Assembly: GCA_963749445.1 (NCBI GenBank)
Contig: CAVVMJ010000006.1
Span: 10,979-74,978 of the forward strand
Direction: 5' to 3'
DNA: 64,000 nucleotides
From: an uncultured bacterium
GTDB lineage: Bacteria > Patescibacteriota > Doudnabacteria > UBA920
The notes under the pieces were generated by a model. It did no database searches. It saw nothing but the letters and a program-made list of their open reading frames with translations, and was not told the origin of the DNA. Positions 493 to 18,291 of this stretch are shown here, one piece after another (position 1 is the first letter of the stretch; the number at the start of each line of letters is the position of its first letter). Both the position numbers and the translations under genes were made by a program.

Positions 493-520
493 TTGACATC
501 CTGCGTGGAAAGTCTACAAT
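493..520 (+). promoter_or_regulatory. Sigma70-like promoter, TTGACA-N16-TACAAT
   Basis: TTGACA at 493-498 and TACAAT at 515-520. There is no ORF downstream before a hairpin terminator at 679-716. Confidence 0.4.
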
Positions 521-1136: not shown

Positions 1137-2114
1137 ATGAAAAAAATCTTAATCAGCTTTAGTACAATTGCTTTGGTCGCAATACTGGCCGTCGGCGCCA
1201 CCAGGTCATACTTCAGCGCCACCCAGACTTCCACCGGCAATACCATTACCGCTGGAACAATTGCTATTTCTGTTGATGACCAAAATCCCTGGACTAAAAC
1301 TTACTCCCAGAACTTACTGGATATGAAGCCAGGGATGACCAGAACGATTACTTTTGTGGTTAAAAACACAGGTACAAACCCGGTTGTTTTAAGAAAACAA
1401 GTCGGCGGATTTGAATTGGGTGGTACGTTGACTTCAGGTTATTGCACTGCAAACGGTGGTATCACGAGTGGGTCTGCTTGTCTTAATGCAAGCACGACTC
1501 CACCTCAAGATTTATCCAATGTCATGACTTACGACATGACTGTTACTTCAGCTAGTGGCACAACCGTAATGATCCCAGATTCGTGGAATGTAAAAATGAG
1601 CGATATCAAAGATCTTTGGATTCCATTGGGCACACTTCAACCTAACGATACGCTTTCTGTTACACAGAGCTATCATTTTGACGAAGCAACAGGCAACTGG
1701 GCACAGGGCGACACCTTGGCCTTCAATATCAGCTTGTATGCTGAACAAGTAGGTGGAGTTGGTCCTAACACAATCGCTGGTGTAGTATTGGACAACAAAG
1801 ATACTACTTCCTGGGCTTCTTTAGTTGACGGAACACTGGGTATTTTGAGATGGGATGCTACTACTGGAGCTTACACACTGAAAGCGTTCGGCCTAACTAA
1901 CGGCTTAACTTATGGAGTGGCTTATTGGAACGGTTCAACCGAAACTCTCATCGACGCCGTCTCCGGAGCACCCACTAGCGGCCAACTGACTCTTTCAGGA
2001 ACTTATGCCGCGTTCAACACTAATTCCAAGGCTAAATATTGGCTAAGACCTATTCCTTGGACATCAACTAGCGACGTAAACACTCTTTGGGAAGATAACT
2101 TAGTCCATCAATAA
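1137..2114 (+). CDS. TasA/camelysin-like secreted protein with a SipW-cognate signal peptide
   Basis: N-terminal hydrophobic segment followed by TRSYFSATQTSTGNTITAGT, the signature motif of SipW-cognate signal peptides. Confidence 0.6.
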   Translation: MKKILISFSTIALVAILAVGATRSYFSATQTSTGNTITAGTIAISVDDQNPWTKTYSQNLLDMKPGMTRTITFVVKNTGTNPVVLRKQVGGFELGGTLTSGYCTANGGITSGSACLNASTTPPQDLSNVMTYDMTVTSASGTTVMIPDSWNVKMSDIKDLWIPLGTLQPNDTLSVTQSYHFDEATGNWAQGDTLAFNISLYAEQVGGVGPNTIAGVVLDNKDTTSWASLVDGTLGILRWDATTGAYTLKAFGLTNGLTYGVAYWNGSTETLIDAVSGAPTSGQLTLSGTYAAFNTNSKAKYWLRPIPWTSTSDVNTLWEDNLVHQ

Positions 2115-2182
2115 TTATCTGATTTAAGTTCTTTCCACCCAGCCCCTGCGCGCAAGGGCTGGGGAATAAGCACTTAAAAAAT

Positions 2183-2773
2183 TTGATAATGGCAAATAAA
2201 TTCTTTAAAGTTTTATATTGCGTATTTTTTACCGTTATTGGAGTAATCGCTTTAATCCTGATTTTATCCGCCGTACCGGGCAAGAATATGCCCAAGACTT
2301 TTGTGGTTTTGTCTGGGTCTATGCAGCCGGCCATTAAGACGGGAAGCGTGGTGTTGGTCTGGCCGGTGAGCCAATATAAAATCGGGGATGTTATTACTTT
2401 TGGCCCCAATACCGGCACGCAAATCCCGACCACGCACCGGATTGTGGAAATGCGGGCGCAAACCGGCCAGCCGGTTTATGTAACCAGGGGCGATGCCAAT
2501 AACGCGGTTGACCAAAGGGAAGTGTCCGGCAAAGACATTTTAGGCAAAGTCCATTTGGCGGTCCCTTATATCGGTTATGCCGTAGATTTTGCCAAAAAGC
2601 CGGTTGGGCTTATGTTGATAATTATTGTTCCGGCCGTGATTATTATTTATGATGAATTAAGGAAAATAGTCGAGGAAGCCGCGAGAATAAAGAAAAAGAA
2701 AAAAGCAGGCGCTTTAGGCATGCCGGAAGAAATGCTACCGGCAGGATTAAAGCCGGAAGATAAAAAAGAGTAA
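2183..2773 (+). CDS. sipW: Signal peptidase I, SipW type (S26B, archaeal/ER-like)
   Basis: An N-terminal TM helix followed by VLSGSMQPAIKTGSVVLV, which carries the catalytic Ser. It sits between two SipW-cognate substrate genes. Confidence 0.7.
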   Translation: MIMANKFFKVLYCVFFTVIGVIALILILSAVPGKNMPKTFVVLSGSMQPAIKTGSVVLVWPVSQYKIGDVITFGPNTGTQIPTTHRIVEMRAQTGQPVYVTRGDANNAVDQREVSGKDILGKVHLAVPYIGYAVDFAKKPVGLMLIIIVPAVIIIYDELRKIVEEAARIKKKKKAGALGMPEEMLPAGLKPEDKKE

Positions 2774-2779
2774 ATTTTT

Positions 2780-5041
2780 ATGCGAGTTAAGATCAGAAAA
2801 TATAACCGTGACAAATTAGGGCGATTTAAGGCTGTTCGGCCCATGCGTTTGGATTTTAATTTTGCCAAAAAATTCGCGGTAGCGGTTTTGGTTTTTGGCC
2901 TGATGCTGCAGGGCGGCGGTTTTGCTATATTAAAAACTTCTGCCTATTTTAGCGACAGCGCGACATCTTCCGCCAATACTTTAACCGCCGGGACTTTGCA
3001 GTACGTTTTGTCTGGTTCGGATTTTTCACCGGCGACAATTAAAAAGGGCGAAACATCCGCCCGGGTAGTGGATATTTCCAATACCGGCAGTTTGGGTTTT
3101 AAATATGTAGCCAGCGCGGCCGATTTTGGCGCAGATACGGACTTATGCGATGCGCTGACGTTGCAGGCCGATTTGGCGACTACAACGGTGTACAGCGGAT
3201 TGTTGCAGAATTTTGTCGCCGCCACCACGACTTTTGACAACCTGTCGCCGGATTGGCATTTTACTGTCAGCTTGCCGGCGTCGGCTTCCGATTCTTTGCA
3301 AGACAAATCCTGCGGTTTTAAATTTATTTACAGCGGCTGGCAGGAAAATTTTTCCGGCCCGGCATCGGGTTTTACCGACGTGCAGGAAACTTCCAGCGTC
3401 ATAAATTCCGGGCATTGGGTAACGCCCCAGCCGGGCGATATTGACCCGTCGCCGATTATTGACGCCACCGTGAACCAGGCGAATCCGGCCAATAATTACG
3501 GCAGTATTTGCCACCTGAGCGTCGAGTCGCGAAACACCAACAAGAACCAACGCAGTTTTATCCGTTTTAATTTTAATTTGCCTGTTACCACAACCATCAA
3601 CTCCGCAAGCCTGGATTTGTTCATGAGTTCCGCCCCCGCGAGCTCGCGTACCTACCAATTAAAGCGGGCTTTAAGTTCCTGGGATGAATTGGGTATTACT
3701 TGGGATAACCAGCCGGCATCCGGCACAGTTGTGTCAAGCGCCACGACCGGAACCGCTGACAATCAATTGCTGGCTTGGGATGTTAAGACCGACGTGCAAA
3801 ATTTTGTAACTTCCCCGTCCGACAATTACGGCTGGGTTATCGGCGAAAGCAGCGAAGATGCAGGCGGCACCGGTTTTAACGCTTCCTTTGTCTCCCGCAA
3901 TGCCGCAGCGACCAATCCCGATCATCGGCCGCTGCTGCAAATCAACTTTACCGTTCCTCCGGCCGCTACCGATCATATGGTCATCAACGAAGTTTATCCC
4001 AATATCGGCCCGGGCAAAGGCAACGACCCGCGCGATGAGTGGGTGGAAATTTATAATCCCACTGCCGCGCCCCTGACCATGGCAGACTGGAAAATTTGCG
4101 ATAATACCAGTTGTGACGCTTTGCCGACCACCACTTTGCCTTCGTTAGGCTTTGGGGTAATCATTACCAGCACCTCGCAAGTTACCGGCAATTGGTCAAT
4201 CCCAAGCGGCGCCGCAATTATATATTTGGACAATACCACCATCGGTAACGGGTTGAGCAATACCGGTGATCGCGTGGAATTAAAAGATGCGGGCGGTAAT
4301 TTGGTTGACGCCATGAGTTATGGTACGGACCACACTTATTTTTCCACTTTAGCTGCGCCGCAGAGCGGAAATTCTTTGGCCCGTGTTGTCAAAGGCTATG
4401 ATACGGACAGCGCGGTAGACTGGGTGGAGAGCGCCACGCCCAATCCAGGGACTAATCCGGGTTTAATCGCAAGCGGTGACGGCAGCGAAGTTATCCGTTT
4501 TACTTCGGATGGGATTATGATAGCGGCCAATCAAAGCGATTTGCCTGCGATTGACGCCGGCACGGATCAGGCGCAAAATGCGCCGTCTTTGGACGAACCG
4601 GATGGTTCTTCCGTTTTGCCTGCAGCGGTTTCGGCAGATATGTCGGGATCGGGTGATAATGCGTTGTGTTCGGGAGGCACGCCTTCCGCAGACGATTTAC
4701 CTGTAAGCCCATCGCCAAGCGCTGTTCCTGATACCGCCGGCGGCCAAGGCCAAGATATCGTTGCGCCGCCTGGAGATCCTGTTTCGCCGGCTTCGGACGC
4801 GCCTGATCAAAAAAGCGGTTCAAACACCGGCGATGCAAATAACACGCCGCAAACCGATCAGTCTCCGGCCGTTGAACCTCCGGCGCAGGACATTGTTTCT
4901 CCGGACCCGCCTGCTGTTGTAACGGCATCCCCATCAGCCGAACCTGAGCAAATAATTCTCGCTCCGGCGGCAGTAGAACCCCTGGCCGCACCGGCGCCAG
5001 CACAGCCGGAGCTGCAGACGACTTCGGGAGGAGATGAATAA
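2780..5041 (+). CDS. Large secreted protein with a SipW-cognate signal (LKTSAYFSDSATSSANTLTAGTL), a DNRLRE-like region, a lamin-tail domain and a Pro/Ala-rich C-terminal tail. The true start is probably the internal Met near 2843.
   Basis: Lamin-tail domain signature MVINEVYPN..DEWVEIYNPT..GDRVELKDAGGNLVD. Low-complexity PAxxP tail. Confidence 0.55.
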   Translation: MRVKIRKYNRDKLGRFKAVRPMRLDFNFAKKFAVAVLVFGLMLQGGGFAILKTSAYFSDSATSSANTLTAGTLQYVLSGSDFSPATIKKGETSARVVDISNTGSLGFKYVASAADFGADTDLCDALTLQADLATTTVYSGLLQNFVAATTTFDNLSPDWHFTVSLPASASDSLQDKSCGFKFIYSGWQENFSGPASGFTDVQETSSVINSGHWVTPQPGDIDPSPIIDATVNQANPANNYGSICHLSVESRNTNKNQRSFIRFNFNLPVTTTINSASLDLFMSSAPASSRTYQLKRALSSWDELGITWDNQPASGTVVSSATTGTADNQLLAWDVKTDVQNFVTSPSDNYGWVIGESSEDAGGTGFNASFVSRNAAATNPDHRPLLQINFTVPPAATDHMVINEVYPNIGPGKGNDPRDEWVEIYNPTAAPLTMADWKICDNTSCDALPTTTLPSLGFGVIITSTSQVTGNWSIPSGAAIIYLDNTTIGNGLSNTGDRVELKDAGGNLVDAMSYGTDHTYFSTLAAPQSGNSLARVVKGYDTDSAVDWVESATPNPGTNPGLIASGDGSEVIRFTSDGIMIAANQSDLPAIDAGTDQAQNAPSLDEPDGSSVLPAAVSADMSGSGDNALCSGGTPSADDLPVSPSPSAVPDTAGGQGQDIVAPPGDPVSPASDAPDQKSGSNTGDANNTPQTDQSPAVEPPAQDIVSPDPPAVVTASPSAEPEQIILAPAAVEPLAAPAPAQPELQTTSGGDE

Positions 5042-6365
5042 TATGAAGCTATTATTTATTAAAAAAGTATTATTCGGCGCGGCAGTTGCAGGCGGTTTAA
5101 TGCTTGCGTTGCCGGCTTTGGCCCAAACGCCCCCACCGGATTTGCAAGTGGTGTTTAACCCGAATCCGTTGTTCAGCCAGGTGAATTTCGCGCCCGGGCA
5201 GACTACGACCGGCAGTATCCATGTAACAAACAATACCGCGCAGACGCAAAAAGCGCAGATTGAAGCCGTCAATCAAATCAATGCCGGCGGTTTGGCCGAA
5301 CAGTTTGATTTTGTCGTCAAGCTGAACGGGAATACTTTGTATGAAAAAACTTTAAAGGAATTTTTTGACGCCGGGCAGGTGTATTTGTCCGATGTGGCGA
5401 GCGGCGCGACCGTGCAATACGACCTTAGCGTGACTTTTAAGCCCGAAGCCAATAATGATTTTCAGGGAAAGACAGTCGGTTTTGATTTGGATGCGGGCTT
5501 TTTGGGTCAGGAGGGCATAACGCCGCCGACTAATCCTGGTTCTTACGGCGGCGGCGGGGGAGTGTCCGGCGGTCTGCCGCAAGGGCTTTCTATTTACGAA
5601 GATAAAATTATAGCTACGGTAACCGGCCCGACCACGGCAACCATCAGCTGGACCACCAGCTACGATTCCACCAGCCAGGTGGTTTACGCTTCCGACGCCG
5701 AGTTTCCCTCCGTAACTTTTGTGGTCAGTCCTCCGGATTTTGGTTATCCGCATTATACTGCGGATGATTTAACCAAGGTAACGTCGCATATCGTATTTTT
5801 GACCGGTTTGATTCCAAGCACGCATTATCATTTTCGCGTAATTTCCCACGCCTCGCCTCCCACGGTCAGTTTTGACCACTCTTTTACCACCTGGCCGGTG
5901 GGGCTTACCGTACCCAACCCAACCGTGGCCGGAGCGGAAACCGCCGCGCCCCCTTTGGGACAGATTGACGGAGCCGCGTCCACCAGGGGAAATTTATTAG
6001 CCGCGGCCGGCGGAAACGGCGGGCAGGCATCGCAGCCGTCCGGCGAAGTCTTGGGAGTGGCAACTGCACCGCCGGCCAATCCGGCTTCCGAAATTTGCAT
6101 TAAAAATCCGCTATGGGATTTTGGTTATTTGGTTTACGCCCTGTTGCTGTTAATCGGCTTGGCGTTTTATAAAAAATTGAGTTTCAAAAATTATTCTTCG
6201 GGCGCCGCCGCAGCCGCCTTAGCCGCGCTGCTTTGGTGGTGGTTTGAGCCGTGTCCGCGGCACTTGTGGTTGTGGCCGGCGGCCATATTAGCCGCAGCCG
6301 TGATTGCCGTTTTTATGGCGTGGCTGCTGGCAAAAAAAATCGCGCCCAACCCACCCCCAACATAA
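5034..6365 (+). CDS. Secreted protein with a signal peptide, an FN3/Ig-like region and a C-terminal TM anchor. It overlaps the upstream gene by 8 nt, suggesting an operon.
   Basis: N-terminal AVAGGLMLALPALAQ and C-terminal hydrophobic helices. Confidence 0.45.
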   Translation: MNNMKLLFIKKVLFGAAVAGGLMLALPALAQTPPPDLQVVFNPNPLFSQVNFAPGQTTTGSIHVTNNTAQTQKAQIEAVNQINAGGLAEQFDFVVKLNGNTLYEKTLKEFFDAGQVYLSDVASGATVQYDLSVTFKPEANNDFQGKTVGFDLDAGFLGQEGITPPTNPGSYGGGGGVSGGLPQGLSIYEDKIIATVTGPTTATISWTTSYDSTSQVVYASDAEFPSVTFVVSPPDFGYPHYTADDLTKVTSHIVFLTGLIPSTHYHFRVISHASPPTVSFDHSFTTWPVGLTVPNPTVAGAETAAPPLGQIDGAASTRGNLLAAAGGNGGQASQPSGEVLGVATAPPANPASEICIKNPLWDFGYLVYALLLLIGLAFYKKLSFKNYSSGAAAAALAALLWWWFEPCPRHLWLWPAAILAAAVIAVFMAWLLAKKIAPNPPPT

Positions 6366-6446: not shown

Positions 6447-6475
6447 TTGACATAGTATATAGTTTATGCTATACT
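6447..6475 (+). promoter_or_regulatory. Promoter, TTGACA-N17-TATACT. The promoter at 13986 shares its extended -10 region, TATACTAGTAGTAA.
   Basis: Read directly from the sequence; it lies upstream of the 6571 gene. Confidence 0.45.
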
Positions 6476-6570: not shown

Positions 6571-7659
6571 ATGGGCATTTTAGATACCATCATTCATACC
6601 AAACAAAGCGAATCCCGGGCGGATTTTAAAGCCGCGGACATCGTTAAGGAATTGCTGGCCCAGCTTAAGGAGCGCGACCGGCAGATTTTGCTTAACCGCT
6701 ATGGCTTGGAAGGCAATTCCACCAAAACTTTGGCTGCCATAGGCTCAGAGCAAAACCTCACCCGCGAGCGCGTCCGCCAGATTGAAAAGGATTTGCTCAA
6801 ACACTTAAGGAAAGGCGGCGGCGCCGTGCCGGCTTTTAAGCAGGCCAAAGACTTTTTATTGGACATCATTACGGAACACGGCCGGATTATTGCCGAGGAA
6901 AATTTGCTTTTGTATTTAAACGTCCAGGATGAAAGGGAAAAGAACGCCGTGATTTTTTTGCTGCACTTGATTGAGGAACTGGAACATTTTATCCACGACA
7001 ACTACAAAAAGAGCTGGGTGGCAACGCTGTTTAATCAACAGCTGCTCCACGATTTTACCTCCGAAAGCAAAAAAATCCTGGACGAACACAAACTGCCTTT
7101 GGCCACGGAACAATTCCTGGAGCATTTTAAGCAAACCGAGTTTTACCGCCAAAACAGTTCGGAGCTCAGTGATAAAGTTATTTTGAACTTTTTGGATTTG
7201 GCGATTGATATTGAAAAAAACGTTTTTGGCGCCTGGGGACTGGCTTATTGGAAGGAAATCACGCCCAAGGATGTCGGCGACAAAGCTTATTTGGTGATGA
7301 AGCACCACGGCAAGCCGGAGCATTATTCCGGCATTACCGGGATGATCAACAAGTATAAATTTGACGGCCGCACGGCCTACAAAGAAACCGTGCATAACGA
7401 GCTGATTAAGGACAAACGGTTCATTTTAATCGGCCGCGGCATTTACGCCTTGGCGGAATGGGGCTATAAGCCCGGCGTGGTCTCCGACGTCATTGCCGAA
7501 GTCCTCAAAACCGCCGGCAAGCCCTTAAGCCGCGACCAGATCATTGACGAAGTGCTGAAAAAGCGCATGGTCAAAAAAAATACCATTTTGGTCGGCCTGT
7601 CCAACAAGAAATTATTCCGCAAAGCCGCCAAAAACGTTTACGCTTTAGCGGCAGATTAA
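6571..7659 (+). CDS. Sigma-70 region-4-like HTH domain protein
   Basis: LLNRYGLEG..KTLAAIGSEQNLTRERVRQIEKDLLKHLR matches the sigma70 region 4 pattern. Confidence 0.5.
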   Translation: MGILDTIIHTKQSESRADFKAADIVKELLAQLKERDRQILLNRYGLEGNSTKTLAAIGSEQNLTRERVRQIEKDLLKHLRKGGGAVPAFKQAKDFLLDIITEHGRIIAEENLLLYLNVQDEREKNAVIFLLHLIEELEHFIHDNYKKSWVATLFNQQLLHDFTSESKKILDEHKLPLATEQFLEHFKQTEFYRQNSSELSDKVILNFLDLAIDIEKNVFGAWGLAYWKEITPKDVGDKAYLVMKHHGKPEHYSGITGMINKYKFDGRTAYKETVHNELIKDKRFILIGRGIYALAEWGYKPGVVSDVIAEVLKTAGKPLSRDQIIDEVLKKRMVKKNTILVGLSNKKLFRKAAKNVYALAAD

Positions 7660-7884: not shown

Positions 7885-9231
7885 ATGAGCGGATTGTTTC
7901 CCGATTTTTCAGTGATTTTTAAAATTTTCAGCCAGTTCCTGGTATTTTACTACGGCTGGGTGTTTTTTGTTTTAGGCTTGGTTTACATGCTCTGGCGCCT
8001 TTACCGCACGGAAATTATGATGCAGCACTGGCGCAAACAAAAATGGGTTTTTTTAAGCATCAAAGTGCCCAGGGACAACCGCGTCAGCACCGTTGGCGTA
8101 GACAACATTTTTTCCCAGCTGCATTCTTTGCAGGTCAACAAAACTTTTATGGAAAAATACGTGGAAGGGCAATTATTCCAGCTGTGGTACAGTTTTGAGC
8201 TGGTCAGCATGGGCGGCAAAATTTCGTTTATCATCCGTTCCCCGGAACGGATGCGGCACAACGTGGAAGCGGCGATTTATTCCCAATACCCGACGGCCGA
8301 AATCAGCGAAGTCGCCGATTATATGGAAAACATTAACTACAATCCGGACAAGCCCGGGGACTTTGACATTTTCGGCACGGAATGGAAATTGGACCAGAGC
8401 GACGTCATTCCCATAAAAACCTACACGGATTTTGAGCACCCCGCGGCCGACGAAAAAATCCTGGATCCGCTCAGCCACATGTTTGAAAGTTTGGCCAAAA
8501 TGGAACCACACGAATTTTTCGGCGTGCAAATTCTTGCCATGCCCCTGGCCGACGAGGAGTGGAAACTCAAGTCCGAAACGAAAATTAAGGAACTGACCGG
8601 GGAAGAAATGCCCCATCAGCGCACCCTTGCCGGCGTGCTTTTGGCGCCGTTCGGAATCCTCGGAGGCAAGACCGCCATCCAGGCTTTCCGCGGCGGCGAC
8701 AGCCACGGCCACGGCCCGCATCCCAACGAGCAGCAAAACAAGCCGCGCAACAACTGGCTGTCCATGACCGAAGCGGAAAAAATGCGCGTGACTTTAATAG
8801 AAAATAAAGCCAATAAACCCGGCTACCGGACTAAAATCAGATTTCTGTATATTGCCCCCAAAGACAGGTTTGACCGGAGCAAGCCGTTTATGGTGGTGGG
8901 CGCTTATCGGCCCTTTTCCGCGCCGATGTACAATAAAGTCAAACCGGACATCCACACCACCTGGACGCACATTGACGCTTACATTTCCCCAACCCTGGAA
9001 AGGCCGGTTTTGGAATGGAAGCTCAAATACAAAAAACGCTGGCTGTTCAAGGGTTATAAAAAACGCGACTGGGATGTTGGCAGTCCGCTGTTTATTTTAA
9101 ATACGGAAGAATTGGCCACGCTTTACCATTTCCCGATTACCACGGAAACCACGACCGTGCATCCGGCCATTGAACAGACCTTAAGCAAGACCAGCCAGCC
9201 GCCGGCCAACTTGCCGATTGCGGAAATGTAG
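7885..9231 (+). CDS. Membrane protein with an N-terminal TM helix, encoded immediately upstream of the T4CP-like ATPase. Function unknown.
   Basis: 448-aa ORF bracketed by the TAGAAATA repeat arrays. Confidence 0.4.
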   Translation: MSGLFPDFSVIFKIFSQFLVFYYGWVFFVLGLVYMLWRLYRTEIMMQHWRKQKWVFLSIKVPRDNRVSTVGVDNIFSQLHSLQVNKTFMEKYVEGQLFQLWYSFELVSMGGKISFIIRSPERMRHNVEAAIYSQYPTAEISEVADYMENINYNPDKPGDFDIFGTEWKLDQSDVIPIKTYTDFEHPAADEKILDPLSHMFESLAKMEPHEFFGVQILAMPLADEEWKLKSETKIKELTGEEMPHQRTLAGVLLAPFGILGGKTAIQAFRGGDSHGHGPHPNEQQNKPRNNWLSMTEAEKMRVTLIENKANKPGYRTKIRFLYIAPKDRFDRSKPFMVVGAYRPFSAPMYNKVKPDIHTTWTHIDAYISPTLERPVLEWKLKYKKRWLFKGYKKRDWDVGSPLFILNTEELATLYHFPITTETTTVHPAIEQTLSKTSQPPANLPIAEM

Positions 9232-9331: not shown

Positions 9332-11246
9332 ATGCCCACCGATAATCAAATTACAGTTTTCGCCAAAACCAACTTCCGAGGCAGAGAAGCGCCTTTTGGC
9401 ATTAAAGCCGACGACCGGCGCCGCCACATGTACATTATCGGCAAGACCGGCATGGGTAAAACCACGCTCATGGAAAACATGGTCATTCAGGACATCCGTA
9501 ACGGTCACGGCGTGGCGTTTTTGGATCCGCACGGCGACTCTGTCCAGCGGATTTTGGATTCCGTGCCCTCCGGCCGCGTCAATGACGTCATTTATTTTAA
9601 CCCGGCGGATTTGGACTTTCCGGTTGCTTTTAACATTTTGGAATCCGTGGACCCCAAGTATAAGCACTTGGTGGCTTCGGGTTTGATGGGCGTGTTTACC
9701 AAAATTTGGGCGAATTTGTGGTCGGCCAGGATGGAATACATTTTGAATAACACGATTTTGGCTTTGCTGGACAGCCCGGGCAACACCCTTTTGGGCATTA
9801 CCCGGATGTACGTGGACAAAAAATACCGCAAACGGATTGTGGACAACGTCAAAGACCCAATGGTCCGCGCTTTTTGGGTGGATGAGTTCGCCAATTACAA
9901 CGAAAAGTACCGCACCGAAGCCATCGCGCCCATCCAAAACAAAGTCGGCCAATTTTTATCCAGCGCTATTATCCGCAACATTGTGGGCCAGCCCAAGAGC
10001 ACCATTGACTTGCGCGAAATTATGGACCAGCGCAAAATTTTGATTATGGATTTGTCCAAAGGCCGGATGGGCGAGGACAACTCGGCGCTGCTTGGCGCCA
10101 TGCTGGTGACCAAGCTGCAGCTGGCCGCCATGTCGCGCACCGACGTTGGAGGAAAAAGACCGCGAAGATTTTTACTTTTACGTGGACGAATTCCAGAATT
10201 TTGCCACGGAAAGCTTTGCCACAATTTTGAGCGAAGCGCGCAAATACCGCTTGAACCTGATTGTCGGCCACCAATATATTGCCCAGCTGGAGCAGGACAA
10301 GAGCACCAAAGTCCGCGACGCGATTTTCGGCAACGTCGGCACTATAGTAATTTTCCGCATCGGCGCCGAGGACGCGGAATTTTTGGTAAACGGAATTTGA
10401 GCCGGTCTTTACCCCCGTCTGATTTGGTGAACTTGCCCAAATACCAAATTATTTTAAAATTGATGATTAACGGCGTGGCTTCCGAGCCGTTTTCCGCCAC
10501 GACTTTGGCGCCCAAGCCCGAGCACAACACGGGCAACATCGGACAAAGTCATCAAGGTCTCGCGCGAGCGCTATAGCAATCCGGCCGCGGAAGTGGAAGA
10601 AAAAATTTCCCGCTGGATGGGCGCGGAATACCACCAGGAGTCGGCTTTGCAAATTGGCTCCGGGCAGACGGCGGAGCACCAGGAAGAGGAATCTTCTGAT
10701 AATTCAGTCAGCCCACCCGTTCCGGCGCCGCAAATTAAAAGTCCTGATATCAAAAAAGAAATGCCCGCGCCCCAACTATCAAATGAACTTGAATTTACCG
10801 ACGTAGGGGAGGGTTTAAAACCCTCCCCTACGGGGACGCAAAAAAATCAGGAACCCAAGCCCCAAAACCAGCAACGCGCCGATCGTCGTCCGGACCAACA
10901 TCGTAGCCAGCGCCAAGACCAACATAATCCCCATCGCGATAGAGAGAATCGCCGCCAATCGGATAACCGCCATCAGCAAAGCGGACAAAAGCCCAAACAA
11001 CCCGAACGCAAAGAAAACCCCATTTGGCAAACCGTACACGACATCCACAGCCAAAAACAAAAGCAAAATTCTGAGCAGACAAACCGCGCGGTGGCAAAAA
11101 TTTTCAAACCCGCAGAGCAGGTAAAAAACCCATCGGCTGATGAATTTTCGCGGCAAGATCTGTCTCCAGTTGTCCCACAACCCCCAACCCCTCCCAAACC
11201 CGCCGAGCGCACCGTCCTCAAACCCAACCAGCAATATAAAATTTAG
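9332..11246 (+). pseudogene. TraD/VirD4/TraG-family type IV coupling-protein-like P-loop ATPase. As written the gene is disrupted by four +1 frame changes at roughly 10143, 10392, 10416 and 10541. It ends in a long disordered Gln/Arg/Pro-rich tail.
   Basis: Walker A HMYIIGKTGMGKTTL..FLDPHGD in frame 2. Walker B YFYVDEFQNF and LIVGHQYIAQL in frame 0 (ORF 10146..10400). EFEPVFTP is in frame 1. SDLVNLPKYQIILKLMINGVASEPFSATTLAPKPEH is back in frame 2. DKVIKVSRERYSNPAAEVEEKISRWM is in frame 0 (ORF 10593..11246). Every shift sits at a homopolymer. Confidence 0.55.
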
Positions 11247-11994: not shown

Positions 11995-12276
11995 ATGAAT
12001 ATAGAAGAAATTAAAGTTAAAATTACCCCGATACTTTTAAGGCACGGGGTCAAGCGTGCCGCGGTTTTTGGCAGTGTGGCCAGGGGAGAGGAGCGGCCGG
12101 ACAGCGATGTTGATGTGGTTATAGAAATATCCAGACCGTACGGATTGTTTGAGTTTGTGGAGATAAAGCACGGTATGGAAGATACTTTGGGCAAAAAAGT
12201 TGACTTAGTTGAGTATAGTTCCATTAAACCCAGAATCAAAGATAATATCATCAAAGACCAAGTGCGGATATTATGA
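11995..12276 (+). CDS. Nucleotidyltransferase (MntA-type antitoxin of an MNT/HepT pair)
   Basis: GS..RG....SD.D sequence AAVFGSVARGEERPDSDVDVVI. Confidence 0.7.
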   Translation: MNIEEIKVKITPILLRHGVKRAAVFGSVARGEERPDSDVDVVIEISRPYGLFEFVEIKHGMEDTLGKKVDLVEYSSIKPRIKDNIIKDQVRIL

Positions 12277-12617
12277 TTAATCCGGGCGCGAGAGGATACC
12301 TTGAAGATATTTTGGAAGCTTTGGAAAAAATCCAAAGATATGTCTTTGGTATGTCCCTGGAACAGTTTAGGAATGATGAAAAGACGCAAGATTCAGTTAT
12401 TCGGAATTTTGAAATCATCGGCGAGGCGGTTAAGCGCATTTCAGAGGAATTTAAGAACAGCCACCCCGAAGTTCCATGGCGCTCCGCCGCGGGGATGAGA
12501 GACGCTTTGATTCATGATTATCCTAATATTGTGGCGGATGTTGTCTGGAAAACTGCGGTGGAAGATTTGCCGGTATTTAAAAAACAGATTACCGGATTAC
12601 TGAAGGATAATCCGTAA
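12273..12617 (+). CDS. HepT-like (DUF86) toxin
   Basis: It overlaps the MNT gene by 4 nt. RNFEIIGEAVKRISEEFK..PEVPW..GMRDALIHDY matches the HepT/DUF86 pattern. Confidence 0.7.
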   Translation: MINPGARGYLEDILEALEKIQRYVFGMSLEQFRNDEKTQDSVIRNFEIIGEAVKRISEEFKNSHPEVPWRSAAGMRDALIHDYPNIVADVVWKTAVEDLPVFKKQITGLLKDNP

Positions 12618-12894
12618 GGTTGGCGATTATTGTAAAATATCAAATGTCAAAATTTGACCCCCTGACGTTTAAGATTTGACCCCTGACGATGGGCGGTAAG
12701 ATATCCCGGCAAGCCAAAAGCTAAATAATGGGCCATGTCCCCATTTGCATTTGTCATCTTTGAGCATTAATATCACTTTTAAGAACCGCTTCTTATAGGG
12801 CGGTTTTTTGTTTTTGTCCAATTTTGAAATAACGCGCAGCCGAGCGTAAAGTCAACAAGGGTAATTTAGTGGGGGACGCATTATTTAAAACAAG

Positions 12895-12950
12895 ATGGTA
12901 AAAGCTGATGGCTTGTGCAAAATGTCAAAAATTCGGACTTGGCCCCCTGA
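12895..12950. repeat. rep50 copy 2
   Basis: GCTGATGGCTTGTGCAAAATGTCAAAAATTCGGACTTGGCCCCCTGACC. Confidence 0.55.
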
Positions 12951-12997
12951 CCTTGATACTTCCAGAAGTTCTGCTATAATACCACCAATAAACCTTT

Positions 12998-13288
12998 ATG
13001 AATTTAGAACAAATCAAGAAAAAAGTCAGCCCTGTGCTTCGCAAATACCGAGTGGAATACGCGGGTGTTTTTGGTTCGGTTGCCAGAGGCCAGGCGCGGC
13101 CGGACAGCGACGTGGATCTTTTGGTCAGGTTTGAAAAGGTTCCGAGCTTAGTGCAGTTTATCCGAATGGAAAACGAGCTTAAAGAAACATTGCGGACTAA
13201 AGTTGATGTGGTGGTGCAGGGTTCGGAAAAATTTCTTATTAAGCCCGGCATTGAAAAAGACTTAGCTTTACTTTATGGACAGAGATGA
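12998..13288 (+). CDS. Nucleotidyltransferase (MntA-type antitoxin), a paralog of the 11995 gene
   Basis: GVFGSVARGQARPDSDVDLLV. Confidence 0.7.
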   Translation: MNLEQIKKKVSPVLRKYRVEYAGVFGSVARGQARPDSDVDLLVRFEKVPSLVQFIRMENELKETLRTKVDVVVQGSEKFLIKPGIEKDLALLYGQR

Positions 13289-13598
13289 ACAATACAAACA
13301 GGATATTTTGGAAGCGATTTCCAAAATTGAGCAATCCGCGGCAGACTTGACTTATGAAAGTTTTGTAAACGATGCCGATACCTTTGACGCCTGTGTCAGG
13401 CGCTTGGAGATTATAGGAGAAGCAGTTAAGCGTTTATCCGGCGACATTAAAGACAAGGCACCGGACGTTCCCTGGAAAGAAATCGCGGGCTTTCGGGATA
13501 AAGCGATCCATGATTATGCGAGTTTAAATGCCGCCATTGTATGGGAAACTATCCGCACCGACGTACCGCAACTTAAAGCGGCTTTGTTGAAGCTTTGA
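13275..13598 (+). CDS. HepT-like (DUF86) toxin, a paralog of the 12273 gene
   Basis: RRLEIIGEAVKRLSGDIKDKAPDVPWKEIAGFRDKAIHDY. Confidence 0.7.
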   Translation: MDRDEQYKQDILEAISKIEQSAADLTYESFVNDADTFDACVRRLEIIGEAVKRLSGDIKDKAPDVPWKEIAGFRDKAIHDYASLNAAIVWETIRTDVPQLKAALLKL

Positions 13599-13615
13599 AC
13601 ATTAGCGTTAGTTTT

Positions 13616-13648
13616 AAAAATCGCTGCACCAAGCAGCGGTTTTTTGTA
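13616..13648 (+). terminator. Intrinsic terminator, a copy of the one at 11568
   Basis: AAATCGCTGCACCAAGCAGCGGTTTTTTG. Confidence 0.6.
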
Positions 13649-13790
13649 AAAATGCCGGTTGTTTAATATACGCGAGGTATTTCAGCGGAAAGTGCTCTTC
13701 TTGGGATGTGCAAAATATTGTTACATTTGCGCGTACGTACGCGAAAACGCAACAAAGGGGAAAAAGATTTGTAACGGATTTATTTTGAAA

Positions 13791-13836
13791 GTTGATGGCT
13801 TGTGCAAAAATGTCCAATGTCAAGACTTGACCCTCT
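13791..13836. repeat. rep50 copy 3. Its core contains the perfect palindrome GTCAAGACTTGAC.
   Basis: GTTGATGGCTTGTGCAAAAATGTCCAATGTCAAGACTTGACCCTCTG. Confidence 0.55.
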
Positions 13837-13847
13837 GTTTATTTAAT

Positions 13848-13920
13848 GGCGACAAAGTTAGGCTTAAATTCCACTTTAAGACGTCGCGGTGACCTAAAAA
13901 AGGTTCCTGACACCTTTTTC
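13848..13920. repeat. About 70-nt repeat GGCGACAAAGTTAGGCTTAAATTCCACTTTAAGACGTCGCGGTGACCTAAAAAAGGTTCCTGACACC (rep70 copy 1). Copy 2 is at 14804-14878.
   Basis: Two near-identical copies flank the HigBA cassette. Confidence 0.6.
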
Positions 13921-13985
13921 TTCCTAATGGGTCATGTCCCATTTGTCCTCCTTTGTCCCATTTGTCATTCCTGCTTTTTGCCCAC

Positions 13986-14013
13986 TTGACAGGCATATCT
14001 TATATGATATACT
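13986..14013 (+). promoter_or_regulatory. Promoter TTGACA-N16-TATACT with the TATACTAGTAGTAA extension
   Basis: Shares its extended -10 with the 6447 promoter. It lies 20 nt upstream of the higB-like start. Confidence 0.45.
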
Positions 14014-14032
14014 AGTAGTAAAATAAACACTT

Positions 14033-14398
14033 ATGGACGAATATAAAATTACGTTTTTTTATAATCCGGATACGGGGAAAATTCCGGTTCGGGAGTACTT
14101 GGACGGCATCGCCCAAAAGGAAAGGGCTAAAATTTTAAAGTACATTGAATTTTTAAGGGAACACAAAGGCGTACTTGATGAGCCATATGCCAAGCATATT
14201 CGGGATAAAATCAGGGAATTGCGCGTGGATTTTGGCGGAAACAGGCATCGAGTTTTCTTTTTTACTTTTGTCGGAAAAAATATTATTCTGCTCCACGCTT
14301 TTCTTAAAAAAACCACGGCAACTCCGGAATCGGAAATAGGCAAAGCGTTAAACAATTACCATCAAATTATTAATAACCCAAAGCTTTATGAAAACTAG
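14033..14398 (+). CDS. HigB-like toxin (Gp49/RelE-ParE superfamily)
   Basis: Pattern ..REYLD..KERAKIL..I..L..LRVDFGGN.HRVFF..GKNIILLHAFLKKT..TP..EI, followed by a 3'-overlapping HTH antitoxin gene. Confidence 0.6.
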   Translation: MDEYKITFFYNPDTGKIPVREYLDGIAQKERAKILKYIEFLREHKGVLDEPYAKHIRDKIRELRVDFGGNRHRVFFFTFVGKNIILLHAFLKKTTATPESEIGKALNNYHQIINNPKLYEN

Positions 14399-14687
14399 AA
14401 TAAGTCTAAAAAAATCAATAAGCTTTCAGGCTTACTTAAAAGCCCAGCTTAAAAATCCGCAAGTTAAAAAACATTACGATGAAGCCGGCAAGCGCTTAGA
14501 AATCGCTTATCAAGTGATTCAGTTGCGCAAGGAGGGAGGGGTATCCCAGTCGCAATTGGCGAAAAAACTGGGTACAACGCAAAGTAATGTTGCCCGCATA
14601 GAAGCCGGACAGCAAAATTTTACCGCAGAAACTTTGCAGAAAATCGCAAAAGCATTCCGGCGCGATTTGCGCATTGAATTTGTCTAG
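14388..14687 (+). CDS. XRE-family HTH antitoxin (HigA-like)
   Basis: LRKEGGVSQSQLAKKLGTTQSNVARIE helix-turn-helix. Confidence 0.6.
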   Translation: MKTRISLKKSISFQAYLKAQLKNPQVKKHYDEAGKRLEIAYQVIQLRKEGGVSQSQLAKKLGTTQSNVARIEAGQQNFTAETLQKIAKAFRRDLRIEFV

Positions 14688-15102: not shown

Positions 15103-16186
15103 GGGGTCAAGTCTATATTCTTGACAAAATATATTTGAGTTGATATTGTTTGATTATGGCCAGACCATTAAGAATAGAATACGAAGGTGCTTTTTATCAT
15201 GTTATTAATCGTGGTCTGGAACGCCGGGAAATATTCCGCCAGCCTAAAGACTACGAATATTTTTTAGGGCTGCTCGAATATATATACGAGAAATACGGAG
15301 TTATCGTTTACGCCTTTTGCCTAATGCCTAATCACTACCATCTATACCTCCAAACTCCCCAGGGAAACTTAAGCAAAGCCATGCGCCAGTTAGATGGCAA
15401 CCATACTCAGAAATTTAATAAACGCTATAAGAGAGTAGGCCCGCTGTTTCAAGGGCGTTACAAGGCAGTTTTAGTAGACAGCGACAGTTATTCCCTGCAA
15501 TTGGCCAAATATATCCATTTAAATCCTGTCAAAGCCAAACTAATACAAAAGCCCGAAGATTATCAACATTCCAGCTACTCCTCATATATCGGTAAAACCA
15601 AAGCCCCGATATTTCTTAACACTAAATGGGTGCTTTCTCAATACGCCAAGTCAAAAGGTAAAGCTGTTAAAGAGTTAAAAAAGCATACACTCGAAGCCCA
15701 AGAGGAAGATTGGGAGCCCGAAAAAGATACTTTTAAGAGCTTGATTTTAGGTGGCAGTGATTTTGTTAACCAAATACAGGAAGAATTTTTACAGGGAAAA
15801 GAAAATTTTGAAATTCCTAAGCTTAAAGCTGTTCAAAAAGTTTTATCCGCGCATGAAATAATTGCTAAAATTGACAGGCTTAAATTGGGTGAAAATGACA
15901 AGACCAAAATTATTGTTTACGCGTTAAAGAGGTACAGTCCGTTGACCTTAAAAGAGATAGGGGAGCAGTTTAATAATTTGCATTATTCCGCTGTCGCACA
16001 GATACTCATCCGACTGCAAAAGAAATTATCTACAGATAAACAGCTTGCAAAAACTGTCATTGAGGTTGATAAACTGTTTAACAATAAGTTAAAAATATAG
16101 ACTTGACCCCATATTCATATTCAAAAACTGTCATTGAGGTTGATAAACTGTTTAATAAGTTAAAAATATAGACTTGACCCCATATT
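15103..16186 (+). mobile_element. IS200-like / REP-associated-type Y1 (HuH) transposase element. Left terminal repeat GGGGTCAAGTCTATA at 15103-15117, right terminal repeat TATAGACTTGACCCC at 16096-16110, and a 62-67-nt tandem duplication of the right end (16050-16116 and 16125-16186).
   Basis: The terminal repeats are exact reverse complements of each other. The same core occurs in the rep50 copies scattered upstream. Confidence 0.6.
15150..16100 (+). CDS. Y1 HuH transposase (IS200/IS605-type or REP-associated tyrosine-transposase-like) with a roughly 170-aa C-terminal extension
   Basis: YHVINRG..ERREIF..DYEYFL..YAFCLMPNHYHLYL (the HuH motif) ..GPLFQGRYKAVLV..YIHLNPVKA..HSSYSSY. Confidence 0.7.
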   Translation: MIMARPLRIEYEGAFYHVINRGLERREIFRQPKDYEYFLGLLEYIYEKYGVIVYAFCLMPNHYHLYLQTPQGNLSKAMRQLDGNHTQKFNKRYKRVGPLFQGRYKAVLVDSDSYSLQLAKYIHLNPVKAKLIQKPEDYQHSSYSSYIGKTKAPIFLNTKWVLSQYAKSKGKAVKELKKHTLEAQEEDWEPEKDTFKSLILGGSDFVNQIQEEFLQGKENFEIPKLKAVQKVLSAHEIIAKIDRLKLGENDKTKIIVYALKRYSPLTLKEIGEQFNNLHYSAVAQILIRLQKKLSTDKQLAKTVIEVDKLFNNKLKI

Positions 16187-16670: not shown

Positions 16671-17429
16671 TTGCAAGGGAGTATTCAAATGATGAAGACG
16701 TTTTCCCTCGCGGTGCTCACCGCGATTCTCGCGCTGGCTGTTATGCCAAGCGCTTCCGCTCAGGGCTTCAGCGCTGTGACGCTGGACGCTTCGGCCGTAA
16801 GTTCTCACGGCGCGTGCCTGGTCGGGCAGATTGTGCCCAAGCCTGGCGCGTCAGTGGCAGGGGCCACACCGTATACGCAATTCGTTTACAACCCGGACTC
16901 GCCGCCGACGCCGAGTAATGGCGTAGGCGCCCCGTATGTCAGTCAATATGCACCCTCCGACGGGACAGGCCCGGTCGTGATGGATGTGGTTTCTTGCATC
17001 GGTCCGATTTTGCCAACGACCACGTATTATTTCAAGCTGACGGGCTCAACTAATTTCTACGTGGCCGGCAACGTGGTGACGTTCACAACCCTCGATGAGG
17101 GAGCTCCCTTCATCGATCCGGGATATGGCACCAAGCCCATCCCCGGATCCGGCAATCTCAAGGGTTGCGCGGGCTGTCAGGTCGCCGTGGTCGGGGAGAA
17201 CTTTGGGCCCTTGACCCAAGTTTACTTCAACGACACGCCGATCGATCCTAGCCTCGTATATGTCACCTTTGACCGACTACTCACCTTCCAACTTCCCGAC
17301 CGGCTTCCAGTCGGCTCGGTGTGGACCGTCCGGGTCGTGAACAACGGCCTAAGGTCAAACAGCGTCCCGCTCGTGGTCATCCCGGCGTCGGTCGCAAACG
17401 CGACCCCGAACCCCCCGAACACGAGGTGA
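16671..17429 (+). CDS. Secreted protein with a signal peptide and a C-terminal IPT/TIG-like domain. GC-rich relative to its flanks.
   Basis: Signal LAVLTAILALAVMPSASAQG. C-terminal VAVVGENFGP..VYFNDTPI..VTFDRLLTFQLP..VWTVRVVNNGLRSNSVPLVV. Confidence 0.45.
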   Translation: MQGSIQMMKTFSLAVLTAILALAVMPSASAQGFSAVTLDASAVSSHGACLVGQIVPKPGASVAGATPYTQFVYNPDSPPTPSNGVGAPYVSQYAPSDGTGPVVMDVVSCIGPILPTTTYYFKLTGSTNFYVAGNVVTFTTLDEGAPFIDPGYGTKPIPGSGNLKGCAGCQVAVVGENFGPLTQVYFNDTPIDPSLVYVTFDRLLTFQLPDRLPVGSVWTVRVVNNGLRSNSVPLVVIPASVANATPNPPNTR

Positions 17430-17700
17430 CGCCGCCATGCCACTTCGCCATCAACCTCGGGCGTGCCCCCGCATGCACGTCCGAGCGCAACACAGAGGGC
17501 CACCACCCAAGTATTTCTCGGTGGCCCTCTTTTTTTGTTTAAAAATATGTTAATTGCATCAATCAGGCCGAATATTTGCGATAATTGACAGGTGGATTGA
17601 TTTACGATTATACTATAAATACCATTCTTTTCCAGACTTTTCAATAGCTTGATTTTGTTCTATAATAAATTATACACATTAAGTTCCATGTTTTATCTCC

Positions 17701-18291
17701 ATGGACCAAAATTTAGAAACAAACCCACAACCAAATAATCTTAATACCGCCCCGAATGTCGGTGGCGGCAATTATCCTGTCCCTCCGGTTCCCATCCCCA
17801 GTAGCCACCACAGGAAAATCTGGATTATTATAGTTATAATAATTTTGGCTGTTTTGGCAGTCGCGATTTTTGCAGCAGTAAATAAAAAATATCAATGGGG
17901 AATAAATAACTTCGCAGTTAATTCCCCGCAAACCCTTAAAAATTTAGTAATCCCGGTTTCGTCGGACGAAGTCAGAAGATATTTTTTCACAGCAGGATCG
18001 GGTACTTTATTGTTACACGAAGACAGTCAGCAACAAGGGAATGTGGCTAGTTTCATTTTAAATTTTGTGAGTGGGCTGACGGTAACCGAGGCCGTGACCA
18101 GTTATGAGAACCTTTTTAAGAACAGCGACTGGACGTATACATTGAATAAAAATAATACCGACCTACTTGTGTCAATGCATGCGACTAATAAAGATGGAAC
18201 ACAGGGGGCTATTATAAGACTTGCGAAAAATGGCGCGGACAAAGAAGCCAATATATTAGTAATTTATTATATCGCAAAGAAAGGGAGTTAA
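17701..18291 (+). CDS. Membrane-anchored hypothetical protein
   Basis: Pro-rich N-terminus, then a TM helix IWIIIVIIILAVLAVAIFAAV. Confidence 0.35.
   Translation: MDQNLETNPQPNNLNTAPNVGGGNYPVPPVPIPSSHHRKIWIIIVIIILAVLAVAIFAAVNKKYQWGINNFAVNSPQTLKNLVIPVSSDEVRRYFFTAGSGTLLLHEDSQQQGNVASFILNFVSGLTVTEAVTSYENLFKNSDWTYTLNKNNTDLLVSMHATNKDGTQGAIIRLAKNGADKEANILVIYYIAKKGS

Follow-up and report, generated by a model that had tools for sequence, protein, structure and literature searches.

A candidate membrane-anchored TasA-type fiber encoded by a four-gene locus of a Doudnabacteria genome

What is assembled by a locus in which the gene of a dedicated signal peptidase lies between the genes of two proteins carrying the same type of export signal? 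This question is raised by positions 1137–6365 of a 64,000-nucleotide stretch of DNA from an uncultured bacterium (GTDB lineage Bacteria; Patescibacteriota; Doudnabacteria; UBA920; assembly GCA_963749445.1, contig CAVVMJ010000006.1, positions 10,979 to 74,978), the whole of which is referred to as the window. Four co-oriented open reading frames (ORFs) on the plus strand, named P1, P2, P3 and P4 in order, fill this interval, and their spacing (a gap of 68 nt between P1 and P2, a gap of 6 nt between P2 and P3, and an overlap of 8 nt between P3 and P4) fits a single operon. All four ORFs were recovered at the same coordinates as in the original prediction, which had been made from the letters alone and had noted that the peptidase gene is sandwiched between a TasA-like gene and that of a 753-residue protein. 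On the basis of structural models and of analogy with characterized filaments, we favor with moderate confidence the answer that P1–P4 constitute a self-contained, membrane-anchored TasA-type fiber built by donor-strand exchange, in which P3 would be the tip, P1 the shaft and P4 the anchor.

Proteins encoded by the locus

P1 consists of a signal peptide (residues 1–24), a strand segment (25–46), a jelly-roll extending to approximately residue 208 and an extra beta-sandwich domain (211–325). It scored 32.1 bits against PF12389 (Peptidase_M73; cut-off 22.5), over its first ~80 residues only, and 20.3 bits against the SipW-cognate signal model TIGR04088 (cut-off 19), the motif of which is found at 25-YFSATQTSTGNTITAGT, directly after the hydrophobic segment. 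The Peptidase_M73 matches span only about 80 N-terminal residues; the TasA fold of P1 was shown separately by structure prediction. The AlphaFold2 model, computed from a 56-sequence alignment, had a mean predicted local distance difference test (pLDDT) score of 86.9, and its top match in the PDB was the cryo-electron microscopy structure of the TasA fiber (8aur_A; E 4.6e-6, probability 1.00, target-normalized TM-score 0.46), which bears out the TasA-like jelly-roll that had been suggested as a check. At the sequence level, too, TasA is found by the P1 family profile (8aur, E 0.002; 5of1, E 0.004).

In TasA, residues 28–38, immediately after the SipW cut, are the donor strand that completes the beta-sandwich of the next subunit (PMC9674648). 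P1 residues 25–46 are the position-for-position counterpart of TasA residues 28–47, which include this strand, and the sole disordered stretch in the P1 model comprised residues 24–37; being left unplaced in a monomer fits a strand that there has no partner. The SipW-cognate signal was confirmed in both P1 and P3, as had been claimed, with scores above the trusted cut-off of TIGR04088, and since both motifs occupy the position of the TasA donor strand, this signal is best read as a cleavage site plus a donor strand.

With regard to the P1 family, 152 homologs were found at E ≤ 1e-3. Few of them carry a source name, most of these being from Patescibacteria metagenome-assembled genomes (MAGs), and the names given by annotation pipelines include 'TasA family', 'CalY family' and, in one case, 'M73 family metallopeptidase'. 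TIGR04088 matched 56 of 56 family members. The model for the Bacillus subtilis TasA equivalog (NF046066) had no match to P1 at E ≤ 0.1 and matched 23 of the 56 members weakly (best E 6.1e-7). By these profile matches, P1 is a member of the TasA family and not a TasA equivalog.

P3 resembles P1 in its N-terminal part, with 23.2 bits against TIGR04088 (cut-off 19) and 23.1 bits against Peptidase_M73 (cut-off 22.5), the latter again over the N-terminal ~80 residues only. Its relatives carry the motif AYFNDTE.S..N...AG.LDF, likewise preceded by a Lys/Arg-rich N-region, and 19 of the 40 family members match TIGR04088. Beyond the jelly-roll, the domains named in the original prediction were found as described, namely a DNRLRE-type region (95 bits against NF033679, cut-off 34; 90.7 bits against the CBM96 model PF24517, cut-off 26), a lamin-tail domain (LTD) above its cut-off and, by composition, an Ala/Pro-rich tail, although at 753 residues the protein does not merit the label 'giant' that it had been given. 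No transmembrane (TM) segment or LPXTG motif was found in the tail (residues 521–753), no catalytic domain was detected in P3 by the Pfam and NCBIfam scans, and no TapA-family model was among its Pfam/NCBIfam matches at E ≤ 0.1. Among the 40 P3-like proteins of related loci, the LTD is the constant accessory domain (36/40), while the lectin-type slot varies, being occupied by Laminin_G_3 in six, by sialidase-N in three and elsewhere by fn3 and other domains. CBM96/DNRLRE occurs in one of the 40, which is the P3 of the window.

For P4, the fn3-like Pur_ac_phosph_N domain was the sole curated match, with the HMM match at residues 191–286 (an fn3-like domain is present in 30 of 41 family members). 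Its start at 5034 is preceded by a GGGAGGAG ribosome-binding site, and for this reason the 443-residue form is favored over the 421-residue form of public collections. The signal peptide is of the ordinary Sec type, with an AxA site (ALPALA/QT). In profile–profile comparisons (hhalign, with alignments built from ORFs of related loci), the P4 N-domain matched the P3 N-domain with 98.8% probability (E 1.2e-16) and the P1 N-domain with 98.0% probability (E 1.8e-13), whereas the controls, against two other beta-sandwiches of these proteins (fn3 and LTD), gave at most 0.4%. In line with this, hidden Markov model (HMM) cross-matches were obtained within the window, of P4 to the P3 N-domain model (4.7e-9) and of P3 to the P4 N-domain model (4.9e-9).

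The profile alignment begins at P4 residue 35, opposite P3 residue 71 (G71), and mature P4 starts only four residues earlier; after cleavage at ALA/QT it would therefore lack exactly the strand segment of ~15 residues. Accordingly, the YF(S/N)D.E...N..(T/S)AG segment that follows the signal-anchor in P1 and P3 is absent in P4. TIGR04088 matched none of 41 P4-family members, nor did PF12389, and it is only profile–profile comparison that ties P4 to the TasA family. The P4 model, based on a 12-sequence alignment, had a mean pLDDT of 60.9 (75–90 in the N-domain) and showed a beta-sandwich as N-domain, followed by an fn3 domain and, at the C-terminus, three helices (360–381, 384–404 and 411–435). 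The N-domain of this lower-confidence model matched the TasA fiber 8aur_A (E 9.4e-6, probability 1.00), with an rmsd (root-mean-square deviation) of 5.1 Å, the lowest among the 50 matches listed. We conclude from these comparisons that the P4 N-domain is a third TasA-like jelly-roll of the operon, missed by standard annotation. The fourth gene had been predicted to encode a secreted protein with a C-terminal anchor; the signal peptide and the C-terminal helices agree with that description, which is nevertheless incomplete in that P4 appears to be a strand-less TasA-like subunit and not just another secreted protein.

An exhaustive HMMER search at E ≤ 1e-3 gave 1097 representatives of 50%-identity clusters for the P4 family, and in nearly all of the 150 representatives listed the P4-type domain starts ~25–35 residues from the N-terminus, right after the signal peptide. 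Most P4 relatives end in a TM segment followed by an RKRK-type basic cluster. A word-indexed homolog search with the P4 N-domain alone gave no matches, and one with full-length P4 gave 12, in which low-complexity words dominated. As a separate observation, positions 110–159 of the P4-family profile, which correspond to the C-terminal strands of the N-domain, weakly matched Gram-positive pilus-base proteins in the PDB (a 'putative pilus anchoring protein', 3klq_A, E 0.012; FctB3, 8k6t_A, E 0.014; a pilin isopeptide-linkage domain, 5ttd, E 0.19). These matches are marginal and may be due to chance, and are mentioned in view of the anchor role proposed for P4.

The peptidase P2 is 196 residues long when read from the TTG at 2183 and 194 residues long from the ATG at 2189, the form called in an identical public contig. 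It scored 113.3 bits against the signal peptidase I model TIGR02228 (cut-off 51.85), and its alignment with human SEC11A (7p2p_A, E 1e-10) covers the SGSM, HR and GDxNNAVD blocks, in which P2 has S46 (SGSM), H85 (THR) and D104/D110 (GDANNAVD). In SEC11A, the SGSM, HR and GDxNxxxD blocks presumably hold the catalytic Ser, His and Asp; signal peptidases of the LepB type use a Ser–Lys dyad. Residues S46, H85, R86, D104 and D110 were invariant in 60 of 60 relatives. The block alignment and this invariance identify P2 as a Ser–His enzyme of the ER/archaeal/SipW type (MEROPS S26B), with the Ser/His dyad that the original prediction had named. Hydropathy indicates membrane segments near both ends (4–37 and 134–163). 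As its score against NF046067 (115.7) is under the cut-off of 190, P2 does not qualify as a B. subtilis SipW equivalog.

Table 1. Coordinates of the features of the locus and of the upstream promoter-like site (positions in the window)
Feature	Position	Strand	Evidence or remark
Best sigma-70-like promoter match	493..520	+	TTGACA-16-TACAAT, 11/12; 617 nt upstream of the P1 start; assignment tentative
P1, 325 aa, putative major fiber subunit	1137..2114	+	PF12389, TIGR04088, AlphaFold2 model, homologs
P1 residues 25-46 (YFSATQTSTGNTITAGTIAISV), predicted mature N-terminus and donor strand after TRS/YF cleavage	1209..1274	+	TIGR04088; TasA equivalence
P2, 196 aa, ER/archaeal/SipW-type signal peptidase I	2183..2773	+	TIGR02228, SEC11A alignment, hydropathy
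P3, 753 aa, strand-bearing minor subunit, putative initiator and tip	2780..5041	+	HMM matches, family profiles
P3 residues 31-216, TasA-like jelly-roll	2870..3427	+	PF12389, 23.1 bits; family HMM, E 2.6e-61; hhalign of P3 and P1 N-domains, 99.8%
P3 residues 56-72 (YFSDSATSSANTLTAGT), SipW-cognate/donor-strand motif	2945..2995	+	After basic N-region and hydrophobic segment 31-52
P3 residues 224-388, DNRLRE/CBM96 carbohydrate-binding-type module	3449..3943	+	NF033679, PF24517
P3 residues 394-515, lamin-tail domain (PF00932)	3959..4324	+	49.3 bits, cut-off 34.3
P3 residues 521-753, low-complexity acidic Ala/Pro/Ser-rich tail	4340..5038	+	Composition: A 15%, P 14%, S 12%, D 10%
P4, 443 aa, putative terminator and base	5034..6365	+	Profile comparison, model, hydropathy
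P4 residues 31-166, TasA-like jelly-roll body right after the signal-peptide cleavage site	5124..5531	+	hhalign, HMM, structure match
P4 residues 187-289, fn3-like (Pur_ac_phosph_N) spacer	5592..5900	+	37.9 bits, cut-off 30
P4 residues 359-438, three predicted C-terminal helices/hydrophobic segments (membrane anchor)	6108..6347	+	Model, hydropathy

Conservation of the module and assembly of the putative fiber

The distribution of the four genes was followed by neighborhood look-ups and in 79 loci from species-representative genomes, classified with family HMMs into T (P1-like), S (P2-like peptidase), L (P3-like with LTD) and A (P4-like). Strand segments were scored by TIGR04088 scans, as a regular expression proved too crude (84 of 126 T proteins; two false A calls, one a misclassified T). 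The complete order T(1–3)-S-L-A was present in 36 of the 48 S-containing loci that belong to the candidate phyla radiation (CPR) or are unlabeled; three of the other 12 were T-S-A, without L, and many of the remaining nine stop at or near a contig end. An S-x-A arrangement was found in none of 12 S-containing loci of Chloroflexota, Bacillota and methanogens. Conservation is limited to the four genes themselves, as those on either side change from one locus to the next. Among the lineages that have the module in full are WWE3, CPR3, Parcubacteria, Paceibacterota, Moranii-, Nealson-, Campbell-, Roizman- and Woykebacteria, so that the cluster is indeed shared by related CPR genomes, where the original prediction had proposed to look for it. 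Some module-bearing MAGs automatically labeled 'Gammaproteobacteria' or similar are probably mislabeled. The same probably applies to a contig labeled Candidatus Nanoarchaeia (DASVHF010000072.1; loci L006/L014), in which the module adjoins a bacterial-type rpoB (Rpb2_45) and a single rpoC of 1260 residues, and because of these neighbors no occurrence in DPANN archaea is claimed.

Two natural gene fusions link the peptidase to the P3-like protein. S and L are a single ORF in a curated complete genome of candidate division WWE3 (L009, 10048–12114, 688 residues) and in a second genome (L079, 1920–5438, 1172 residues), and both fusions retain, at the junction, a second hydrophobic segment and the cleavage/strand motif, which implies that the junction is cleaved, by the enzyme itself or in trans. 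Such fusions are evidence of the Rosetta-stone type that L is a substrate of S. Together with gene adjacency, they lend indirect support to the proposal that P2 would process P1 and P3.

The ends of some P4-like proteins vary. Those of L006/L014, L015 and L059 finish in RTX calcium-binding repeats, with no TM anchor. In one Microgenomates relative, a sortase gene directly follows the P4-like gene (L002, 12305–12904, on a 753-kb contig), and a P4-like protein of a Dehalococcoidia locus (L066, 4802–5680) ends in a sorting signal of the sortase type ('...VPATGLPWYYW...', then a TM segment and RRRRK). Covalent wall anchoring of the base subunit may therefore occur in some lineages. It is not supported in the window, where no sortase (TLxTC-type ORF) was found and where P1, P3 and P4 lack LPXTG.

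An unusual feature of the window is the loss of conserved acidic residues in both strand-bearing subunits. Of the 56 members of the P1 family, only that of the window has D28, E30, D43, E100 and E102 all neutralized (D28A, E30Q and D43A at 1209–1274; E100 and E102 of the EPE loop replaced by S and Y, residues 100–110, at 1434–1466), although among the other members D28 and E30 are kept in 55 of 55, D43 in 53/55, E100 in 51/54 and E102 in 49/54. P3 has the changes E61A and D74Q (2960–3001), at positions conserved in 38 of 39 and 33 of 38 others, respectively, and comparable losses were not found in P4. The joint loss suggests, from these alignments, that strand and loop form a cation site with which this system has dispensed. 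Being lost together in P1 and P3, the residues lend indirect support to a coupling of strand and body.

The following course of assembly is proposed. P1 and P3 would be exported by Sec and kept in the membrane by their signal-anchors until P2 cuts at approximately TRS/YF in P1 and TSA/YF in P3, freeing an N-terminal strand equivalent to TasA residues 28–38. P3 would give the first strand, as proposed for TapA and TafC; the N-terminus of TapA mimics the TasA donor strand and has been proposed to supply the first strand or nucleate fibers (PMC9674648, PMC10151520). If P3 does so, it would consequently come to lie at the distal tip, where it could display CBM96/DNRLRE and LTD as adhesins. P1 subunits would then join one by one at the cell-proximal end, each taking the previous strand into its groove and releasing its own, until P4, with a groove, no strand and C-terminal helices in the membrane, captures the last strand, ends growth and anchors the fiber. 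Such a fiber would probably serve an episymbiont in attaching to surfaces or to the glycans of host cells.

Several points weigh against this reading. All of the assembly steps are drawn from monomer models and analogy, and the model of P4 is weak, being built from only 12 sequences, with just the N-domain and the fn3 domain usable. The jelly-roll of P3 is itself complete, so that P3 could occupy any position in the fiber, not just the tip. The extra domain of P1 (211–325) is absent in TasA, the C-terminus of which contributes to the subunit interface, and the Peptidase_M73 matches stop after the N-terminal ~80 residues. Furthermore, the acidic losses in P1 and P3, with the EPE loop gone, may mean that the system of the window works differently or less well. 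Among the relatives, three lack the L gene and three have an A protein with RTX repeats instead of a TM anchor. Finally, P4 may be processed either by P2 or by a housekeeping peptidase.

In order to weigh the donor-strand fiber with tip and anchor, four other explanations were considered. An unanchored biofilm-matrix scaffold as in B. subtilis, with released P1 fibers, P3 as a TapA-like nucleator and P4 as an unrelated co-transcribed membrane protein, would account for a TasA-family P1 next to a SipW-type peptidase and would agree with TasA as the major fiber of the biofilm matrix, to which TapA supplies an N-terminal strand (PMC9674648, PMC10151520). This is nonetheless unlikely, since P4 is not unrelated, its N-domain being homologous to the jelly-rolls of P1 and P3; A directly follows L in the 36 complete loci while the flanks vary, and the specific lack of the strand in P4 is a pattern hard to explain without a role in assembly. 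It is distinctly unlikely that no polymer is formed and that the dedicated peptidase merely matures independent exoproteins, P3 being a glycan-binding or -degrading accessory and P4 a surface receptor. Polymerization is here only inferred, and DNRLRE/CBM96, LTD, Laminin_G_3 and sialidase-N modules occur in enzymes as well as in adhesins, yet such a view leaves unexplained both the shared jelly-roll fold of three proteins and a strand segment present in 56 of 56 P1-family and absent from 41 of 41 P4-family proteins. In P1 this segment is also the one unplaced element of the monomer model, and P3 has no detected catalytic domain.

A two-dimensional, S-layer-like coat or sheath, built of TasA-like jelly-rolls, tethered to the membrane by P4 and decorated by P3 as a lectin, is very unlikely. 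CPR cells are reported to have surface layers, and the second beta-sandwich of P1 (211–325) could make lateral contacts; against this, the characterized relatives cited here (TasA, archaeal bundling pili and Tafi) are all linear donor-strand filaments, a one-to-one logic of strand and groove with a single strand-less member fits a polar, linear polymer with one terminator, and the Pfam and NCBIfam scans gave no S-layer domain match. Of the 'fiber or sheath with an attached adhesin' in the original prediction, the fiber with an adhesin is thus the best-supported reading, while the sheath found no specific support. The view that P1 is a camelysin-type metalloprotease (MEROPS M73) could appeal to the Pfam name Peptidase_M73 and to the one homolog named accordingly. 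It is extremely improbable and was rejected, since HExxH is absent from P1, P3, P4 and all 56 P1-family members, P1 has only two histidines, and the closest solved structure to P1 is the TasA fiber subunit; without HExxH in any member, the 'metallopeptidase' label of the family is nominal.

A central question about CPR bacteria (Patescibacteria) that is still open is how they select their hosts and adhere to them, and to our knowledge only type IV pili have so far been implicated experimentally in this attachment. A compact and self-contained second filament system of four genes, conserved in many CPR lineages, provides concrete candidates for tests. The reading favored here would extend the TasA paradigm from a three-gene matrix-fiber operon to a polar pilus with tip, shaft and anchor, and it brings to light a large family of strand-less, TasA-like anchors that has so far gone unannotated, with none of the 41 members tested being recognized by PF12389. 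A broader proposal, which we consider possible, if doubtful, is that the module specifies a membrane-anchored pilus derived from TasA and present throughout CPR, a bacterial counterpart of Tafi that serves episymbiotic ultra-small bacteria as a second organelle of host or surface attachment alongside type IV pili. Its swappable tip lectin module (CBM96/DNRLRE here; laminin-G, sialidase-N lectin, fn3 and others elsewhere) would set the host glycans that are bound, and the P4 family, with more than 1000 clusters, would be an unrecognized class of bacterial pilus terminators.

The TasA and SipW components are already annotated automatically, and Patescibacteria have been listed, in one sentence, among the phyla with PF12389 homologs (Wang et al. 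2022, PMC9245690). Automatic annotation does not cover the anchored tip-shaft-base organization proposed for bacteria, nor the P4 family. In the literature covered, which was incomplete and thus provides absence of evidence only, we found no other link of the PF12389 family to CPR and no account of T-S-L-A as a module, of a subunit bearing an LTD or of an anchor without a strand.

Surroundings of the locus in the window

Upstream of P1 lies an unusually long non-coding stretch of ~730 nt (404–1136), which contains the promoter-like site listed in Table 1 as well as strong inverted repeats at 826–860 (16-bp stem, minus strand) and 680–703. No Rfam match was found in this stretch, which may be a long leader or contain an unannotated small RNA. 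The region had 13 promoter-like sites compared to a shuffled expectation of 8.7 ± 2.6, not clearly above it. Similarly, the terminator scan did not rise clearly over what shuffled sequence gave, and it returned no internal terminator by which subunit stoichiometry could be set. Directly downstream of the module, 6571–7659 encodes a 362-residue protein with sigma-70 region 4 (residues 28–81) and HARE-HTH (238–297) and without region 2. This gene has its own strong promoter-like site (6447–6475, 11/12, with TG extension) and is not conserved as a neighbor of the module in relatives.

Further downstream, a 448-residue membrane protein without family match (7885–9231) precedes an ATPase resembling type IV secretion coupling proteins (9332–10576; DUF87/TrwB_AAD_bind, residues 18–244). 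From approximately residue 270, the ATPase passes into an Arg/Pro-rich, frame-shifted-looking stretch and then into protein-like sequence again, so the gene may be disrupted or affected by a sequencing error; it is followed by an ORF of 217 residues that is highly charged and rich in Gln, His, Arg and Pro (10593–11246). By eye, the intervals 11995–14687 and 15150–16100 together contain two tandem nucleotidyltransferase/HEPN(DUF86)-like toxin–antitoxin pairs, a further pair of RelE-like and helix-turn-helix proteins and an ORF resembling a REP-associated tyrosine transposase. This group looks like a small mobile or defense islet between the genes resembling those of type IV secretion and a large surface protein. 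The latter belongs to a run of secreted or membrane proteins (16671–22393), comprising a 252-residue protein with a signal peptide, a 196-residue protein with a single TM segment and a Cys-rich protein of 1365 residues with many Ser/Thr/Gly-rich repeats. The 196- and 1365-residue ORFs (17701–22393) were considered as a second copy of the module, which was rejected, as none of the proteins of the run matched any module HMM or any Pfam model above its curated cut-off.

Comparison with known systems

The tapA-sipW-tasA operon of B. subtilis shares three features with the locus, namely a homologous major subunit (PF12389, TIGR04088, and TasA as the top structural match to P1; PDB 8aur and 5of1), a dedicated ER-type Ser–His signal peptidase encoded between subunit genes, and an accessory protein in which the N-terminus mimics the strand motif of the major subunit, the N-terminus left after cleavage being the donor strand. 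The gene order differs, with the tasA-like gene followed here by the sipW-like, accessory and anchor genes, and the three-gene operon has no counterpart of the strand-less, C-terminally anchored P4. P3 is not a homolog of TapA, with which it shares only the strand motif, and instead combines a full TasA-like jelly-roll with CBM96/DNRLRE and LTD. P1 differs from TasA in its extra C-terminal domain, and P2 from SipW in falling under the equivalog cut-off (115.7 compared to 190).

The closest parallel in function is the bundling pilus of haloarchaea, the Tat-fimbriae or Tafi (tafA–G; Galeva 2025, Sonani 2025). In architecture, Tafi correspond to the locus point for point, TafA/E resembling P1, TafD P2, TafC P3 and TafF, probably, P4. 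In the Tafi model, TafC is the tip and initiator, with a pilin-like N-domain and a laminin-G-like domain, and the shaft consists of TafA/E; deletion of TafD, a signal peptidase of the Ser/His type, abolishes fibers, and the anchor TafF has a Sec and not a Tat signal, a pilin-like N-domain modeled as taking the TafA strand, and three C-terminal TM helices (PMC11821415, PMC12337348). Tafi are, however, archaeal and Tat-dependent, whereas P1, P3 and P4 show no twin-arginine motif within their first 45 residues, so that Tat export was rejected for them, and TafD contains an additional domain besides its four TM segments. No Taf model matched P1–P4, the PDB chains reached by the P1 profile were of TasA only, with no Tafi chain among them, and no partner of the TafG (DUF5305) or TafB type was found among the window ORFs scanned. 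Six of the 40 CPR third-gene products matched the NCBIfam model of TafC (NF052521) with 35–56 bits compared to a cut-off of 410, over model positions ~170–373, the laminin-G-like half. Tafi pilins form, in the view of Sonani et al., a group set apart by structure from ABP/thread-like and CanA-like filaments (PMC12337348). The resemblance to Tafi is thus an architectural one, in the sense that the locus would work like them, and membership in the Tafi is not supported. A bacterial arrangement that matches the archaeal model bears on how donor-strand pili may be initiated and terminated without a chaperone or usher.

The archaeal bundling pili (ABP) AbpA/AbpB of Pyrobaculum calidifontis likewise consist of a TasA-related jelly-roll pilin with donor-strand insertion; AbpB has been proposed as an initiator with distal adhesin domains, and membrane proteins of the operon are suspected anchors, whereas the operon has no dedicated signal peptidase and AbpB is TapA-like and not TasA-like (PMC9245690). 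The sequence similarity of AbpA is only remote, in contrast to the direct membership of P1 in PF12389. With the chaperone-usher pili (type 1/P), finally, the proposed fiber would share the plan of a polar polymer joined by donor strands, in which a shaft connects a tip adhesin to a dedicated terminator; in those pili the terminator is PapH. The two are unlike in that there is no homology between them and no chaperone or usher at the locus, where the setting is monoderm and the strand would be exposed by cleavage of the signal peptide.

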